Positions 3,807-64,000 of a DNA stretch of 64,000 nt are shown here, one piece after another. This stretch comes from a bacterium (GTDB taxonomy: Bacteria > SZUA-182 > DTGQ01 > JAFGSM01): positions 1,000 to 64,999 of the forward strand of contig JAFGSM010000080.1 of assembly GCA_016934595.1 (NCBI GenBank), given 5' to 3'. Made by a program: the position numbers and the translations under genes. Position 1 is the first letter of the stretch. Each line of letters begins with the position of its first letter. The notes below the pieces were generated by a model. That model saw only the letters and a list, made by a program, of their open reading frames with translations, was not told the origin of the DNA and made no database searches.

Positions 3807-5870
3807 ATGATTTATATCCAGAACATCAAAAAACATTTCGGGCACAAAACCATATTCGATAGCGCTTCAGCCCATATACCCCCTAAGACTAGAGTTGGCC
3901 TGGTGGGACCCAATGGCTCTGGGAAAACTACGCTCCTTCGGATCTTAACCGGTGAAGAGGAACTGGATGGCGGCGGTATCTTTATAAATAAAGGAGCCCG
4001 GGCCGGTTATCTCAAACAGGAGGTATGGGATAATCCAGACCGCGGCATTTTGGCAGAGACGCTGTCGGGTTTTCCTGATCTTCAAAAGATTGAACAGGGC
4101 CTGATAGAACTGGAACGGCAGATGGAGGGCAAATTTCTGCCTGACACCCTTGAAAAATATGGAGAGTTGCGTCATCTTTTTGAGATACAAGGCGGTTACG
4201 ATATAGAACATCAGGCCAAGTCATTGCTTTGCGGCATGGGTTTCCGTCCGGAGCAATTCGCTCAGCCCCTGCACCAGTTCTCAGGCGGTTGGATGATGCG
4301 CGTCTGTCTCGCTAAATTACTATTGGCCAAGCCCGATGTGCTTTTGCTGGATGAGCCAACGAACCATCTTGACCTGGAGACTATATTATGGCTTGAAAAT
4401 TTTTTGCTTGAATATCCTGGCACCATCGTGTTCACAACACACGACCAGGTATTTATGCAGAATGTGGCAGGGCGTATTCTGGAAATCAGCCGGTGCAAGT
4501 TGTTTACATTTATAGGAAGCTTCGAGGAATATGTGGAGGAAAAGGCTTCCAGGCAGGAACAGATCGAGGCCCAGTATAAAAACCAGCAGAAAAAGGTCGA
4601 ACAGCAGGAGCGTTTTATTGAGCGCTTCCGGTACAAGGCCACCAAGGCAAAGCAGGTGCAAAGCCGTATCAAAATGCTTCAGAAAAAGGAACGGGTGGAT
4701 ATGATAGAAGACACCCCGCGTGCGATGAAGATTCGCCTGCCCCAACCACCCCGGTCAGGTCAAAAGGTGGTGCATGTCTCAAATGTTACAAAAAAATACG
4801 GCGAGAAGACGGTCTATGAAGGGCTAAACCTTATCATCGAACGGGGTGAGAAGGCGGTGCTGGTTGGGCCGAACGGTGCAGGCAAATCTACACTCCTCAA
4901 GATTATAGCCGGAGTAATAGACATCCAGGCTGGAACCGTATCTTATGGCCACCAGGTCACAATGGATTACTACGCCCAGCATCAGCTCGAAACCCTGAAT
5001 CCGGATTTCAGCATACTGGAGGAATTGACGGCTGTGACACAGGACTTCACTCTTGAGAAACGCCGAAAACTATTAGGGGCATTCCTGTTCTCAGGCGAAG
5101 ATGTTTTTAAGCGCATCTCCATTTTGTCCGGCGGCGAAAAGGCACGAATCGCCCTGGTTAAAATGCTATGCCGGCCAATGAATTTCCTGGTCATGGATGA
5201 GCCTACCAATCACCTGGATATCCTTTCTCGTCAGGTACTTGAGGATGCGCTGTCAGACTATGATGGAACACTTGTTTTTATCTCCCATGACAGGGCATTT
5301 ATCAATTCCTTCGCAAACCGTGTTATCGAGATCAGGGATGGCAAACTGCACAGCTATCCAGGAAATTACGATGACTATGAATGGAAAAAAGCCCAGGAAA
5401 AACCACAAACACCTCTTGATCAAAAAATAAAAAACCGGCTGTCACCCGAATGCGTGGCCCCGGATATTCACGGCTCAAATTCTAATGAAAAGCCCATGAA
5501 TCTTAGATTCACAAAGGGGAATGAAAATATACAGAAGGGATTTTCAGATAAAAAAATCCCGGGCAAAAAAGACGGGCGTCGCGTGCGAGCCGAAAGGATA
5601 CAGGAAAAATCCAGGCGTCTAAAACCGCTTAAGGAGAAACTGGCTATTCTGGAAAAAGATATAGCAGCCCTGGAAGCAGAAAAAGAGGTAATCTCATCGG
5701 CAATATGCGACCCTAATATCATAAGCGATACTTCAGTCTATCCGCAAAAACTCAAAAGACACCGTGTCCTTGAGACAAGACTCCAAATATATTATGACGA
5801 ATGGGCAGAAACTTCCCAGCAGATAGAGGAAACCCTTTCAGAGTTTTCAGAGTTACAACCGGGTGATTAA
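3807..5870 (+). CDS. ABC-F family ATPase (EttA/Uup/YheS-like, two ABC domains) with an extended C-terminal tail
   Basis: Two Walker A motifs ([18 protein letters not shown]), two ABC signature motifs ([19 protein letters not shown]) and no TMDs. The C-terminal roughly 150 aa is a coiled-coil tail that contains an in-frame copy of the dispersed repeat (aa ...[23 protein letters not shown]...). Confidence 0.85.
5496..5560 (+). repeat. One unit of the dispersed structured repeat family, inserted in-frame in the ABC-F tail
   Basis: ATGAATCTTAGATTCACAAAGGGGAATGAAAATATACAGAAGGGATTTTCAGATAAAAAAAT matches the units at 58878, 14803 and 8911. It contains two palindromes: TGAATCTtAGATTCA and GAAAATatacagaagggATTTTC. 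Confidence 0.7.
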
Positions 5871-5906
5871 GATCATCTTAAAAGTCAGACCAACACATTA
5901 ATGACA

Positions 5907-6308
5907 TTACAGATAATCGCAAACCATAAACTTATAACCATCCTCAAAAAGCACCTCCATTTTTTGTGGAGTGATTATATTAGTAACAATCCCTATGCCA
6001 AATTTACTATGATTGATTATCTCATCGATCTTATAAGAACCTCCCATAGTATATAATTTGGCCGAAGCAGAGTCCTTATTTGCCAGAATTTCCTTCCATA
6101 ATTCTGTCTCCTTTTCCTGTGTCCGCGCCAGTTTACCCCTTTTCTTCCTGGGCGCTTTTTCAGTCTTGGATACATCAGCGGACTCTTTCAGTTTAGCCTT
6201 TTTACGGATGCCTGGTTCGCTGGCTCTATAGATATGTTGAGCCTGGCAGGTAAGGCATTTCACCTTCTTGGGACGTCCATCTAAAATGGCCACTACAACA
6301 TGGTTCAA
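5907..6308 (-). CDS. Hypothetical small protein: N-terminal CxxC zinc-ribbon-like motif, Lys-rich linker, C-terminal UvrD/PcrA-C-terminal (Tudor-like) resembling segment
   Basis: A 133-aa ORF. KKVKCLTCQAQH and a basic low-complexity stretch are followed by KIDEIINHSKFGIGIVTNI, which resembles the GDxVxHxxFGxGxV motif. No confident family assignment. Confidence 0.35.
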   Translation of the reverse strand: MNHVVVAILDGRPKKVKCLTCQAQHIYRASEPGIRKKAKLKESADVSKTEKAPRKKRGKLARTQEKETELWKEILANKDSASAKLYTMGGSYKIDEIINHSKFGIGIVTNIITPQKMEVLFEDGYKFMVCDYL

Positions 6309-8990: not shown

Positions 8991-9173
8991 AAAATAGAAA
9001 TCCCGAAGTGATAACTTCGAGGAGTAAAGGTTGATATTTTAGGCTTGTTTATCTATAATTACACGCGTTAATTATCTGCTAAGATTCCTATTTAAACAGG
9101 GAGTTTCATGAAGGATGTTCGGGTGGAATTAAAGCTTAACTTAAATGACATTGGATTGCGAATTCATACGACT

Positions 9174-9246
9174 GCGCCCGTAGCTCAGGGGACAGAGCGC
9201 AGCGCTCCGGACGCTGAAGCCGAAGGTTCAAGTCCTTCCGGGCGCA
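9174..9246 (+). tRNA. tRNA-Arg (anticodon CCG)
   Basis: Hand-folded cloverleaf. Acceptor GCGCCCG/CGGGCGC, D-stem GCTC/GAGC with a G18G19 loop, anticodon stem CAGCG/CGCTG, loop CTCCGGA (U33, CCG, G37), T-stem GAAGG/CCTTC and T-loop TTCAAGT, discriminator A. No encoded CCA. The six-frame ORF 9108..9302 is an artefact over this tRNA. Confidence 0.85.
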
Positions 9247-9269
9247 TAATTATTTCCTTAATTAACAAT

Positions 9270-9391
9270 GATGGCCTCGTAAAAAGTCTAAAATGCCCTT
9301 AAAAATAAGTTTAATATTATAATTTTGATACATGTTTTGTCGATATAATCTTAGTTTTTCATCATTAAAAATACTTTTTACGAGGCCATCA
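9270..9391. mobile_element. MITE-like element: 18-bp perfect terminal inverted repeats (GATGGCCTCGTAAAAAGT / ACTTTTTACGAGGCCATC) flanked by a 6-bp direct repeat AACAAT
   Basis: Read directly: left TIR 9270-9287 is preceded by AACAAT (9264-9269); right TIR 9374-9391 is followed by AACAAT (9392-9397). The interior is AT-rich and non-coding. It lies 24 bp downstream of tRNA-Arg. Degenerate solo TIR-like copies occur at about 3697-3716 and 13683-13700. Confidence 0.6.
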
Positions 9392-11086: not shown

Positions 11087-11698
11087 TTAATCTTCCTCGT
11101 CTTCTTCGTTCAGGTCATTAAATATCTTTACCCAAAAATTCTGGATCCCCGTTAGATAGGCATCCATTCCCAGATCCACGGTAAATGCCTGAGGGTTATA
11201 ATAGACATTATAAGGATTTCCGGCATTCATATAACTGGTGGTTGTGGGAGGATAACCCCAAAACCCTGTGGCAGTGTTCATTTGGTTATTCCATGCACCC
11301 TGATCGACATAGGCATAAGGTATAGGATATCCGAATGTATCCACATCACGCCACCCATATCCGTTATAGTTGCCTGTATTATAAGAACCCAAAAAGTTCT
11401 GATTATAGCCTGCATTTACATTATAGGCCCCATTATATATGTTAAATCTGGTGTTATACGGATAATATACCCCCATAGCAGGCCCTAACATATATGGATC
11501 CGAAAATGCCTGATAACTGTTGTAATTCATATAATTGGATGGATTGCCCCAACCAATATTCATATTAGCAGTCCATGTGGGGATGTTATAATAGCCGTAA
11601 TAAGCCGATGCCTGGCCGGTCACACCCGCAGAAAATAAAACTATTATTGCAATAATAAAGATATGATACGATTTCATGTTTTTTGTGATGCCTTTCAT
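11087..11698 (-). CDS. Secreted Tyr/Asn/Gly-rich low-complexity (prion-like/amyloid-like) protein with an acidic C-terminal tail
   Basis: The N-terminal signal peptide is MKSYHIFIIAIIVLFSAGVTGQASA. The mature part is about 15% Tyr and 17% Asn with repeated YN/GY/NxY motifs, and ends in NEEDEED. It is convergent with the cytochrome gene with only a 6-bp gap. Confidence 0.5.
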   Translation of the reverse strand: MKGITKNMKSYHIFIIAIIVLFSAGVTGQASAYYGYYNIPTWTANMNIGWGNPSNYMNYNSYQAFSDPYMLGPAMGVYYPYNTRFNIYNGAYNVNAGYNQNFLGSYNTGNYNGYGWRDVDTFGYPIPYAYVDQGAWNNQMNTATGFWGYPPTTTSYMNAGNPYNVYYNPQAFTVDLGMDAYLTGIQNFWVKIFNDLNEEDEED

Positions 11699-11878
11699 TT
11701 TACTCCTCCAAATATTATTGTTATTGGCTAAAATCTCGATTTATAAGACGATAGAAAATAGAAAAAATTACTGCACCAGAATAAAAACCCAAGTAGATCG
11801 TTCAGTTATATCGATGCAATACATTTTGTTCGATCGATTCATTAACCTGGTATTTCCAATGCTATCTATCGGCAATGT

Positions 11879-11958
11879 GTAACTGCTCAATATCCTGTGG
11901 AAATAGTAACTCATTGCCATTTAGAAGCCTGATTGCCCATAACATATTGAGCAGTTAC
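11879..11958. mobile_element. MITE-like element: 15-bp perfect TIRs (GTAACTGCTCAATAT / ATATTGAGCAGTTAC) flanked by an 8-bp direct repeat GGCAATGT
   Basis: Read directly: GGCAATGT occurs at 11871-11878 and 11959-11966. The TIRs are at 11879-11893 and 11944-11958, enclosing a 50-bp non-coding core. It sits in the divergent intergenic region between the Y/N-rich protein gene and the MBL-fold gene. Confidence 0.6.
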
Positions 11959-12029
11959 GGCAATGTTATTTCATGAACGATCTGCTTGGGTTTGAAAATA
12001 TATCTCATTTCTGCTAATTACATATTATT

Positions 12030-13040
12030 ATGACACCTTGCTTTCACCCCAGGCTGGTCAATGGCCCTTTCCATGACCCTGCCTTATATATAGATTTCCT
12101 CTATCAAAACAGGGCCATCCTTTTTGATATAGGAGACATATCGGCGCTGACGACAAAACATATCCATAAAATCACGGATGTCTTTGTCACGCATACCCAC
12201 ATGGATCATTTCATAGGATTGGACTATCTGATAAGGCTATTTCTTGGCAGGGACAAGCGGCTTTCCATATACGGCCCCCCAAGGATAATCGATAATGTGG
12301 CAGGAAAGCTCTCGGCCTATACATGGAATCTGGTTGACAATTTTGAAAACAGTTTCGAGATCCATGTCTTTGAATCGCACACAGATCACATAGAAAAGGC
12401 GATTCTGAAATGCCATAACCTCTTCCAAAAGGAGATGTGCCTTGAAAAAGCGCCTTTCAAAGACAAACTCCTGGACGAAGATGAATTTAGCATCCATACG
12501 GCCTTTCTTGATCATTTTACACCATGCCTGACATTCTGTCTGAAAGAGAAGTCCCATATAAATATCAAAAAGGACGTATTGGACACACTTGGCCTGCCTT
12601 CCGGCCCGTGGCTAAACCAGTTGAAAACAGCGATAAGGCAGCAGGAGCCGGATAATTATCCGATAACGATCAAGGCCAAGAGTTCGGATGATTCTCAGGG
12701 GCAGAAGACTACCCTGGGCTGGGTCAAACAAAAAGGCCTTTTCACAATTTCACAGGGGCAAAAGATAGCCTATGTTACAGATATAGGGTACACACAGGAA
12801 AATATATCCAGGTTAACCTCTTTTGCAATGGATGCGGACTATCTGTTTTGCGAGGCCGCATTCCTTGAAGAAGACAGCCAATTAGCGAAAAAGAAATGCC
12901 ATCTTACAGCGCATCAGGCAGGGCTGATAGCCAGACAGGCAAATGCAAGGAAACTTATCCCTTTCCATTTTTCCCCAAGATATCAGGGCAGGGAAGACCT
13001 TATTTACAAAGAGGCTGAAAGGTCCTTTACTTCTTCATAA
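12030..13040 (+). CDS. MBL-fold metallo-hydrolase (RNase Z/ElaC-like)
   Basis: Contains the HxHxDH motif (VTHTHMDHFIGLDYL) and downstream His/Asp ligands (DHF..., H at TAHQAG) typical of the metallo-beta-lactamase superfamily. Confidence 0.65.
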   Translation: MTPCFHPRLVNGPFHDPALYIDFLYQNRAILFDIGDISALTTKHIHKITDVFVTHTHMDHFIGLDYLIRLFLGRDKRLSIYGPPRIIDNVAGKLSAYTWNLVDNFENSFEIHVFESHTDHIEKAILKCHNLFQKEMCLEKAPFKDKLLDEDEFSIHTAFLDHFTPCLTFCLKEKSHINIKKDVLDTLGLPSGPWLNQLKTAIRQQEPDNYPITIKAKSSDDSQGQKTTLGWVKQKGLFTISQGQKIAYVTDIGYTQENISRLTSFAMDADYLFCEAAFLEEDSQLAKKKCHLTAHQAGLIARQANARKLIPFHFSPRYQGREDLIYKEAERSFTSS

Positions 13041-61155: not shown

Positions 61156-63108
61156 ATGAGTTCGGACAAAAAAACAAGAAAGGAAGAAACCCTTAAAGAG
61201 GCGGTCAGCGACAAGGCAAATGACAAAATGCCTGACATAAGGGATTCAGAAACAGTTAGTGTTCAGTTAAAGGAAGAAAGGGAATCGCAAAACGATATGT
61301 CATATGATTATGAAGCTGAGACGGAATTTGATTATGATGAAATGTGTTCATTGTATGAAGAAACCCTTGTAAATATAGAAGAGGGCGAGGTTGTAAAGGG
61401 TAAAGTTATAAAAATCTTGGAAAACGATGTCCTTGTTGACGTTGGCTATAAATCAGAAGGCACTATACCTATTGAAGAATTTCAAAAACAAGGAAAAGAG
61501 ATGGCCCTGAAAGAGGGAGATGTCATCGATGTTTTTTTGGAAAACATCGAAGACTCAGACGGACTTGTTGTACTATCAAAAGAAAAGGCTGATAAGATAA
61601 AGATATGGGATGATCTAAACAAGGCATACGAAAATGAAACCGTGATAAAGGGGAAGGTTGTAAAAAGGATCAAAGGCGGCTTAACTGTTGACATAGGCAT
61701 ACCCGCTTTTCTTCCCGGCTCTCAGATTGATACAAAGCCTATCCGGAATCTTGATCTTATGATAAACGAAGACATAAAGGTCAAAATTATAAAGCTCAAC
61801 CGCAAGAGAGGAAATATTGTTGTCTCCAGACGTTCGATCCTTGAGGAAGAAAGAGAAAGCAAGCGGATTGAGACGATAAAAAACATCGCTGAGGGAAACC
61901 TTGTCAAGGGCATTGTAAAGAATATCACAGAATATGGGGTTTTTATCGATCTTGGAGGAATAGATGGATTGCTTCATATCACTGATATGTCCTGGGGCAG
62001 GATACGTCACCCGTCGGAACTATTTATGATCGGTGATGAGGTAGAGGTCAAGGTATTGAAGTTCGATCCAGAAACAGAAAAGGTTTCATTAGGCCTAAAG
62101 CAAAAAACTGTTGACCCGTGGGAAAAGGCTGATGAAAGATACGTCATCGGAAACAGAATCAGGGCAAAGGTTGTCAGCCTTACTGATTATGGCGCTTTTG
62201 TTGAACTCGAAGAGGGCGTTGAGGGTCTGATACATGTGTCTGAGATGTCCTGGACAAAAAAGATCAGGCACCCATCGCGCGTTGTTGCCATCGGTGACGT
62301 AGTTGAGGTTATAGTGCTGGATGTTGACAAGGAAAGGAAAAGGATCTCGCTTGGCATGAAACAGACCGAACCTAATCCATGGCTTATTATCGAAAATAAG
62401 TATAAGATAGGTTCGAAAATAACAGGCAGGGTTAGAAATTTAACAGATTTTGGCGCTTTCGTTGAATTAGAAGAAGGGGTCGATGGATTAATACACATAT
62501 CTGACATGTCATGGACTCAAAGGGTCAAACACCCTTCTGATGTTATAAAGAAAGGAGAACGGATCGAAGCGGTTATATTAAACATTGACAGCAAAAATGA
62601 AAGGTTGTCGATGGGTATAAAGCAGCTTACACCTGACCCATGGTTGAGTGTTCCGGAGAAATATCCGATAGGTTCAAATTGCAAATGCAAGGTGGTCAAA
62701 CTAATCGAAAATGGCGCTATCGTTGAGCTTGAGGAGGGGATTGATGGTTATATACATATTTCTGAAATCTCAGAGGAGGATATTAACTCACCAAAAGACG
62801 TCTTAAAGGAAGGTGATTTCATAAGGGCTAAAATCATAAGACTCGATCCTGAAAACAGAAAGATAGGTCTTAGCATAAGGGCTCATAACAAAGAGCAATC
62901 TGATCTGGAACTTTCAAACTACAACAAGAAGGGAGAAATGCTTAACACATTAGACTCTGCCCCCTTAAAAGAAATCATAGAGGCCCATGCAAAGGCCAAG
63001 CAGCCGATAATATCTGTAGACGAAGATTTAACTGTGGGTGAAGAAAGTCACGAAACTGAATCATCAGGCTCTGATGATATTTCAGACTCTGATGATGTTA
63101 AGGATTAA
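61156..63108 (+). CDS. rpsA: 30S ribosomal protein S1 (multiple S1 domains) with acidic N- and C-terminal extensions
   Basis: At least five repeated S1 OB-fold domains (GxV...G.FV.L..GV.GL.H.SE.SW). The ispH-rpsA adjacency is a common conserved arrangement. Confidence 0.85.
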   Translation: MSSDKKTRKEETLKEAVSDKANDKMPDIRDSETVSVQLKEERESQNDMSYDYEAETEFDYDEMCSLYEETLVNIEEGEVVKGKVIKILENDVLVDVGYKSEGTIPIEEFQKQGKEMALKEGDVIDVFLENIEDSDGLVVLSKEKADKIKIWDDLNKAYENETVIKGKVVKRIKGGLTVDIGIPAFLPGSQIDTKPIRNLDLMINEDIKVKIIKLNRKRGNIVVSRRSILEEERESKRIETIKNIAEGNLVKGIVKNITEYGVFIDLGGIDGLLHITDMSWGRIRHPSELFMIGDEVEVKVLKFDPETEKVSLGLKQKTVDPWEKADERYVIGNRIRAKVVSLTDYGAFVELEEGVEGLIHVSEMSWTKKIRHPSRVVAIGDVVEVIVLDVDKERKRISLGMKQTEPNPWLIIENKYKIGSKITGRVRNLTDFGAFVELEEGVDGLIHISDMSWTQRVKHPSDVIKKGERIEAVILNIDSKNERLSMGIKQLTPDPWLSVPEKYPIGSNCKCKVVKLIENGAIVELEEGIDGYIHISEISEEDINSPKDVLKEGDFIRAKIIRLDPENRKIGLSIRAHNKEQSDLELSNYNKKGEMLNTLDSAPLKEIIEAHAKAKQPIISVDEDLTVGEESHETESSGSDDISDSDDVKD

Positions 63109-63116
63109 ACATTTAA

Positions 63117-63234
63117 CTCTACTTTCGCACTTTTTTGTGTAACCCTATGAAAATATTGATAAAATATGTTGTTTTGTTTAATAAGATATCTTATTGAAAA
63201 ATATGGCTTTTTATAAAAAAGTGCAAAAGTAGAG
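63117..63234. mobile_element. MITE-like element: ~19-20-bp TIRs (CTCTACTTTCGCACTTTTTT / AAAAAAGTGCAAAAGTAGAG, one mismatch) flanked by a 6-bp direct repeat ATTTAA
   Basis: Read directly: ATTTAA occurs at 63111-63116 and 63235-63240. The interior is AT-rich and non-coding. It lies between rpsA and sppA. Confidence 0.55.
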
Positions 63235-63245
63235 ATTTAATATTA

Positions 63246-64000
63246 ATGAATATTTATCGAATTATTAAAGGGATAATTTATTTTACTATAACCATACTGC
63301 TTGTATATTTGATAACGCTTGTCTTTTCTTTGTATTTTGGCAACAGAATAATAACCGGCAAAGAAGGCAAAATTGGTTTGATAAATGTCGAAGGTGTTAT
63401 AATCTCATCAAAATCTTTTATAAAACAACTTGAAAGATTTTCTGATGATGACTCGGTAAAGGCCATTGTAATAAGGATAGACAGCGGTGGAGGCGGCGTG
63501 GCGCCATCACAGGAAATGTATGAGGCGGTTATCAATTTCAAGAAAGAAACAAAGAAAAAGGTGGTAGTTTCTTTTGGTAATATAGCCGCCTCGGGGGGCT
63601 ATTATGTCGCATGCGCCGCAGACAAGATCGTATCAAATCCTGGGACTATAACGGGAAGCATTTCTGTAATAATGAGAATCCCTAATCTTCAATCCCTGTT
63701 CAAAAAGTTAGGATATGAAGAACAGATTGTGAAAAGTGGAAAATTCAAAGATATTGGATCTATTTCAAGAGCCATGACAAAAGAAGAAAGGGCAATATTA
63801 GAAGATATGATGCTTGACGTGCACGAACAATTTATAGAGGCTATTTCACGGTCACGAAATATAGATTTAGAATATATTAGAGAGATTGCTGACGGAAGAA
63901 TATTTTCCGGCAGGCAGGCAAAGGAACTCAACCTGGTTGACAATCTTGGAACAATGGAAGATGCTATTGATCTTGCCGGAAAATTGGCAGGCATCTCAGG
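63246..64000 (+). CDS. sppA: Signal peptide peptidase SppA (36K type), partial (runs off window end)
   Basis: My translation from the ATG at 63246 is MNIYRIIKGIIYFTITILLVYL...KAIVIRIDSGGGGVAPSQEMYEAVINF...GNIAASGGYYVACAADKIVSNPGTITGSI..., matching the ClpP/crotonase-fold S49 peptidase with catalytic Ser in AASGGYY. Confidence 0.8.
   Translation, partial: MNIYRIIKGIIYFTITILLVYLITLVFSLYFGNRIITGKEGKIGLINVEGVIISSKSFIKQLERFSDDDSVKAIVIRIDSGGGGVAPSQEMYEAVINFKKETKKKVVVSFGNIAASGGYYVACAADKIVSNPGTITGSISVIMRIPNLQSLFKKLGYEEQIVKSGKFKDIGSISRAMTKEERAILEDMMLDVHEQFIEAISRSRNIDLEYIREIADGRIFSGRQAKELNLVDNLGTMEDAIDLAGKLAGIS

Follow-up and report, generated by a model that had tools for sequence, protein, structure and literature searches.

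The segment at positions 63117-63234 of the window (the whole 64-kb stretch of DNA that was analysed) is in all likelihood a non-autonomous derivative of the IS701 family, either a MITE or an internally deleted IS copy; the probability of this reading is estimated at roughly 0.85. The putative parent subgroup consists of IS701-family ISs whose termini read CTCnACTTTTGCACTTTT. The element is 118 bp long, contains no transposase gene and is recognized by its inverted arms, its fold and the matches of its ends to IS701-type termini.

Anatomy of the element

The element occupies the spacer between two genes on the + strand. Upstream, rpsA (61156-63108) encodes a ribosomal protein S1 of 650 aa, and ends 8 nt short of the element; the protein is 100% identical to P0001, NCBI MBN2373023.1, "30S ribosomal protein S1 [bacterium]". 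Downstream, sppA (63247-64000, cut by the window end) encodes a signal peptide peptidase of the S49 family, and its ATG lies 12 nt past the element. The sppA assignment follows from the orthologous genes in five relatives (L040-L044), which carry Pfam Peptidase_S49.

The two arms correspond to the two ends of an IS, where IRL denotes the end upstream of the transposase gene (the transposase-proximal end) and IRR denotes the other, distal end. The left terminal inverted repeat, CTCTACTTTCGCACTTTTTT, occupies 63117-63136 on the + strand and is of the IRL type, whereas the right one, at 63215-63234 on the - strand, is of the IRR type and reads AAAAAAGTGCAAAAGTAGAG on the top strand and CTCTACTTTTGCACTTTTTT on the minus strand. 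The right arm is the reverse complement of the left arm at 19/20 positions, with one C/T difference. Read from IRL to IRR, the element points in the same direction as rpsA and sppA. A subterminal block, GTGTAACCCTATGAAAATATTGATA, follows the left arm at 63137-63161 (+ strand) and derives from the transposase-proximal IS end, as an in-register match to four IS ends indicates; it closes with a -35-like hexamer, TTGATA (63156-63161, + strand), 40 nt in from the left end. The target-site duplication ATTTAA directly abuts both arms, with the left copy at 63111-63116 and the right copy at 63235-63240, and the chance probability of such an exact abutting 6-bp direct repeat is approximately 1e-3 by our own estimate from the local base composition.

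The spacer that holds the element has a GC content of 22%, compared with 43.6% window-wide. The longest ATG ORF read inside the element has 16 codons and no obvious ribosome-binding site. These results reproduce a preliminary description of the stretch, in which inverted repeats of about 20 bp with one C/T mismatch bound a 118-bp AT-rich non-coding segment flanked by ATTTAA on both sides; the coordinates and the AT-richness agree, and the direct repeat is exact. The same description had found no transposase gene in the 64 kb. This also holds, as no transposase Pfam domain was detected in the 50 ORFs searched of the 55 longest non-overlapping window ORFs, and tblastn with the IS701-type transposase against the 64-kb window was negative as well.

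Termini of an IS701-type subgroup

The exact 18-mer CTCTACTTTYGCACTTTT was used as a query against 185,579 species-representative genomes, metagenome contigs and viral contigs. The species-representative genomes gave 39 scattered single matches in unrelated taxa, against approximately 35 expected by chance according to our own estimate; none came from the source organism, and none was accompanied by a partner arm or a similar interior. Two Herbinix contigs with the 18-mer contain one repeat common to both that is unrelated to the window element and were set aside. The metagenomes gave 53 stretches, mostly chance matches or one recurring human-gut locus, and the viral contigs gave one chance match, on the same contig as L065. 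The informative loci are L082, L091 and L075 from the metagenomes and L020 from the genome scan. A pair of end-like motifs 1668 nt apart at L080 encloses no transposase-like ORF and was discarded as a chance occurrence.

A comparison of L082 with L020, which are independent contigs, reveals a sharp boundary: the two are 99% identical over a region that starts exactly at CTCTAC, and their flanks differ right up to this point. The L082 element extends over 1561 bp (97-1657) from the motif to an inverted copy of it, with the ends CTCTACTTTTGCACTTTTT and CTCAACTTTTGCACTTTTT, and the same 18-19 nt that form the window arms are the exact terminus of this IS. On the minus strand, the right arm of the window element is identical to the L082 end CTCTACTTTTGCACTTTTT over 19 nt; the ATAA that follows the T-run is likewise common to the window right end, the distal end of the L082 IS and L075. 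The L082 IS contains a single ORF (177-1499, - strand) encoding a transposase of 440 aa, which matches the NCBIfam model NF049999, "IS701 family transposase", at 240.6 bits (cut-off 170) and Pfam DDE_5 at 1.9e-17. Because the IS with the same ends encodes a transposase that passes NF049999, the window arms are identified as termini of IS701-type ISs.

Four further ISs were reached via transposase homology and not through the DNA pattern; the termini that they have in common with the window element are therefore independent evidence, since these ISs were found through protein similarity. All four end in CTCnACTTTTGCAC-type repeats, and their transposases are 47-76% identical to that of L082. 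The IS encoding P0126 (73% identity; loci L098-L107) is 1552 bp long with the ends CTCGACTTTTGCAC and CTCAACTTTTGCAT, and that encoding P0147 (47% identity; loci L108-L117) is 1516 bp long with the ends CTGAACTTTTGCAG and CTGAAGTTTTGCAG. The transposases P0124 and P0125 are both 76% identical to the L082 protein: P0124 belongs to an IS (L118) with the end CTCAACTTTTGCAC, whose right end is not reached, and P0125 to a 1560-bp IS (L119) with the ends CTCAACTTTTGCACTTTTTT and CTCAACTTTTGCAG. The right arm of the window element matches the IRL end of the L119 IS at 19/20 positions.

Homologues of the L082 transposase were found only in metagenomes, mostly on contigs of approximately 1.5 kb, a length typical of repeats at which assemblies break. 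On three long, well-assembled contigs, the full ISs are flanked by AT-rich target duplications of 7 bp, which read TCAATTA at L108 and ATAATAA at L109 and L110. The flanks on the short IS contigs are mismatched, as expected where assemblies have collapsed over a repeat. The related ISs all come from unnamed organisms and, as far as was seen, correspond to no named IS, and tblastn of the IS701-type transposase against plasmids returned relatives at ≤26% identity only and no named IS.

The assignment to the IS701 family, for which the models are NCBIfam NF049999 and NF033540 and Pfam DDE_5, is consistent with the general features of these ISs. The full lengths of 1516, 1552, 1560 and 1561 bp, with inverted ends of 14-20 nt, agree with an IS701 element and lie at the upper limit of the 1400-1550 bp given for the family (PMC6352166) or exceed it by approximately 10 bp, and the L082 IS encodes a single DDE transposase that matches the curated model. 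The usual target duplication of the family is 4 bp (PMC6352166), but those of named members in Deinococcus geothermalis vary from 2 to 8 bp (PMC8369957, Table 2), so that the length of the duplication is not diagnostic; the 7-bp duplications of L108-L110 fall inside the 2-8 bp range. The window element resembles the family in its termini, which match five uncultured ISs (L082, L098, L108, L118 and L119) including the subterminal transposase-proximal part, and in its AT-rich target duplication. It differs in its size of 118 bp, in its lack of a transposase and in a duplication of 6 bp where the parent-like ISs have 7 bp.

The similarity to the ISs continues past the inverted repeat. In an alignment of the two miniature elements (the window element and the one at L091, described below) with four IS ends, columns 1-3, 5-9 and 11-18 are invariant, and beyond the inverted repeat columns A25, A26 and T32-A36 (TGAAA) are also invariant in all six sequences. 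The left end of the window element matches the transposase-proximal IS ends in register for approximately 45 nt, that is, approximately 25 nt past the inverted repeat. The in-register score against the four IS ends is 66/104, compared with 42.2 ± 5.7 for dinucleotide shuffles, and was reached by 0/5000 of them. In the stretch TAAC..TATGAAA..ATTGATA, the window element and the L098 IS agree at 18/22 positions. For the interior next to the distal end, local alignment with the sampled IS ends revealed no significant similarity. Since approximately 45 nt of IRL and approximately 24 nt of IRR are kept with their asymmetry intact, the element has the form expected after an internal deletion in such an IS. 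The preliminary description had called it MITE-like and IS-derived, and both the IS701-subgroup arms and the similarity that runs approximately 25 nt past the inverted repeat bear this out.

Several observations were made at loci with related sequences. The L082 IS sits near the 3' end of an IS1634-family transposase gene (L082 1-96 and 1658-2959; NF033559, 199 bits); no target duplication can be seen at the nested insertion, perhaps owing to recombination or a chimeric assembly. At L075 (reverse strand, 384-1233), a terminus identical to the window right arm over 24 nt is followed by the distal-end-type sequence ATAATCAA. The 1.2-kb contig contains no partner end, and the next ORF has a LAGLIDADG-like motif (..VYLAGAIIGDGSL..) as read in its sequence. 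A different repeat of approximately 35 nt, GGAGGGACGTTCTCTACTTTTGCACTTTTTCG, contains the same 19-mer as the window right arm and extends outward from it; it occurs at L045 (135-166, 1519-1550 and approximately 470-510), L071 (641-1010) and L019 (3700-3900). This repeat bounds an inverted-repeat element of approximately 370 nt in L045 and L071, and it is arranged in tandem in L019, where it adjoins four copies of GAGAGAAACGTCCCC.

A second miniature element and the proposed history of the insertion

A metagenome contig (Ga0307378_10004166) contains a miniature element of 147 nt with the same ends (L091, 43-189). Its left end is identical to that of the window element at 20/20 positions, including a C at position 10 that is absent from the full ISs, and its right end matches at 17/18. 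The flanks, TTCCTTA and TTTCTTA, form a 7-bp repeat with one mismatch. Like the window element, which is of similar size, it contains the TAA..TTGAAA subterminal block of the transposase-proximal IS end, and the score of this IRL block is significant, being reached by 10/5000 shuffles. The interior is unrelated to that of the window element and contains a GC-rich palindrome, TCCCGCCTTCGCGGGA. The genomic context also differs, as the L091 element adjoins a small gene that, judged from the sequence, may encode an XRE/HigA-like antitoxin. Miniature derivatives with these ends thus occur more than once. Within L091 (96-175), the palindrome TCCCGCCTTCGCGGGA is preceded by a related sequence, CCAGCGAAAGCGGGAAG, and looks like a second, nested type of repeat.

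The window element has several features of a MITE: it is small and without a transposase gene, its terminal inverted repeats agree at 19/20 positions over 20 nt, it abuts a target duplication (ATTTAA) that is 1 bp shorter than the 7-bp duplications of the related full ISs, and its ends are common to autonomous ISs, with matches to five IS701-type ISs in metagenome contigs. Known bacterial MITEs such as the Correia element of Neisseria, ERIC, MITEAba12 and QMITE (PMC10969869) are likewise small, non-coding and bounded by terminal inverted repeats and a target duplication. They also share with the window element an intergenic position beside a gene start, a long predicted hairpin if transcribed and a remnant of an IS promoter. 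In sequence, the window element is unrelated to Correia, ERIC, MITEAba12 and QMITE.

Alternatively, a full-length IS701-type IS may have inserted once at this site and lost its interior. In that case the short form would be a single-copy scar with no history of movement of its own. This in-situ origin is less likely, although several results are consistent with it: the 64 kb contain one copy of the element and no transposase, no relation of the interior to L091 or the sampled ISs was detected, and the asymmetric IRL and IRR ends stand in the order expected of a simple internal deletion. Against it, short derivatives recur, since L091 is another one that differs from the window element but shares its left-end variant with C at position 10, and the near-perfect arms together with the exact duplication suggest a recent event. 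The in-situ remnant and the mobile MITE differ only in copy number.

If the element moved as a short unit, a cognate DDE transposase encoded elsewhere would have bound both of its inverted ends and mobilised it in trans. By this route, an ancestral IS would have lost its transposase gene and retained approximately 45 nt of IRL and 24 nt of IRR, and the derivative would have inserted into the AT-rich target ATTTAA, 2 nt past the rpsA stop codon, where repair of the staggered cut would have produced the 6-bp duplication. The empty site would join ...ACATTTAA directly to TATTAATG. Removal of the element and one ATTTAA leaves an rpsA-sppA spacer of 14 nt, which is much shorter than the 63-159 nt of the relatives.

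Fold, syntenic relatives and expression

The whole segment folds into a single long imperfect hairpin of -37 kcal/mol, whereas shuffled sequences give -19.2 ± 2.7 kcal/mol (z = -6.6), and 0/200 shuffles are as stable. Such a strong fold, together with the presence of some hairpin in the same spacer of every relative, would also be expected of a native, non-mobile RNA structure, such as an rpsA terminator or attenuator or an sppA leader hairpin. The five relatives L040-L044, whose RpsA proteins are 73-77% identical to that of the window, keep the order ispH-rpsA-sppA-argS in 5/5 cases and have rpsA-sppA spacers of 159, 152, 63, 80 and 158 nt, respectively. These spacers are unrelated in sequence to one another and to that of the window, and each folds into a different hairpin. 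The end motif is absent from all five with 1 mismatch allowed, and the element is missing from each of these syntenic loci, where at 73-77% RpsA identity the spacers are too diverged to be aligned with that of the window. Because it is absent from the spacers of the five relatives, the stem is not a conserved rpsA terminator or sppA leader; conservation of this stem as a terminator or attenuator, which had been named in the preliminary description as the finding that would speak against a mobile element, did not appear.

Further results make a native RNA structure highly improbable. The arms are identical to IS termini, the similarity runs into subterminal IS sequence, and a direct repeat flanks the element. 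The stem is AT-rich, with arms 78 nt apart, and is followed by ATTTAATATT with no T run, and a terminator scan of the + strand from 62800 to 63500 yielded no site. Rfam 15 at the gathering threshold detects only a tRNA in the whole window (9174-9246) and nothing at the element. An intrinsic (Rho-independent) rpsA terminator was rejected on the grounds that a GC-rich stem with a T run and conservation in the orthologous spacers are both lacking. A similar GC-rich hairpin (GCGGGGTCAG...CTGACCCC) is present in the rpsA-sppA spacers of L041 (6026-6062) and L044 (5859-5888), and in L044 it is nested in a longer 16-nt inverted repeat (TTTTAGTTGTTAAAGA..., 5835-5925); this hairpin may be a terminator specific to the lineage or one more small repeat. 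The neighbouring RpsA has a long acidic, polar N-terminal extension (61156-61400) and an acidic C-terminal tail (62990-63105) with an 18-nt tandem repeat at 63064-63099 (TCAGGCTCTGATGATATT and TCAGACTCTGATGATGTT), and RpsA length among close relatives varies from 621 to 673 aa.

A coincidental inverted repeat in the AT-rich spacer, which might be considered because short palindromes are frequent in a region of 22% GC, is effectively refuted by the specific match to the IS ends and L091, by the 0/200 shuffles that fold as well, and by the 20-mer, which at ≤3 mismatches has only the two arms as sites in 64 kb, against an expectation of 0.01 per window and two matches in 0/100 shuffles. Palindrome-associated elements of the IS200/IS605 type have neither terminal inverted repeats nor target duplications, and this class was dropped for that reason.

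In the full ISs, a promoter-like site lies 30-39 nt in from the transposase-proximal end; the best example, in L098, combines TTGATA and TATAAT with an 18-nt spacer and agrees with the consensus at 11/12 positions. The TTGATA of the window element is as far from its end as the -35 of L098 is from its own, and the -10 region is gone. A promoter consensus scan of the + strand inside the element found no site that passes. The preliminary description had raised the possibility that the element supplies the sppA promoter through TTGATA...TAATAAG; this candidate fails the consensus criteria because its -10 lacks the final T. The proposal is thus weak, with only the -35-like hexamer surviving and no acceptable -10, and the element is unlikely to provide a good sppA promoter.

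Because no terminator-like site is found on the + strand between rpsA and sppA, the element is probably transcribed within an rpsA-sppA transcript. If so, it would fold into a double-stranded rod of 118 nt, which, by analogy with MITE hairpins in the mRNAs of other bacteria, could be a substrate for RNase III or affect the stability of the mRNA. RNase III processing of MITE hairpins in transcripts is known from Neisseria and Yersinia, as is the exposure of RNase E sites by such hairpins, and the documented effects of Correia or ERIC elements include promoters, RNase III or RNase E processing and IHF binding (PMC10969869). A more specific proposal, that the element has been co-opted as a regulatory insulator in a formerly tight rpsA-sppA operon with the rod as a processing site for RNase III or another enzyme, seems quite unlikely. 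If it were true, sppA would be uncoupled from the very highly expressed S1 mRNA in both stability and translation, and the -35-like hexamer might contribute to a weak sppA promoter in combination with a new -10.

The element is of an ordinary, common kind of bacterial repeat and does not challenge current understanding. The appropriate annotation for the stretch is an IS701-derived miniature element rather than a terminator or a small RNA. Searches for the parent IS and for sister copies in this uncultured lineage can start from the end motif CTCnACTTTTGCACTTTT, with CTCNACTTTYGCAC as the pattern on both strands. The comparison also documents an unnamed IS701-type subgroup: its ends are conserved, its target duplications are AT-rich and 7 bp long, and it has given rise to at least two miniature derivatives. 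The element would be a small natural test case for the effect of a MITE hairpin on a ribosomal-protein transcript, provided that this rpsA-sppA spacer is transcribed.

The inference of a genome rich in miniature elements, made in the preliminary description, rests on three inverted-repeat elements in 64 kb, one of which is the single copy of the present element. The element at 9269-9391 is 123 nt long, has perfect inverted ends of 19 nt (TGATGGCCTCGTAAAAAGT) with ACAA on both flanks and lies 21 nt downstream of a tRNA-Arg(CCG) gene (9173-9247); its ends are unrelated to those of the rpsA-sppA element, and it is probably one of the other MITE-like elements noted earlier. A 209-nt segment at 11785-11993 has inverted ends that agree at 19/20 positions (AAACCCAAGTAGATCGTTCA), with no clear target duplication seen. 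It is located in the spacer between ORFs 11087-11698 (-) and 12030-13040 (+), and a 22-nt inverted repeat is nested within it at 11879-11900 and 11937-11958.
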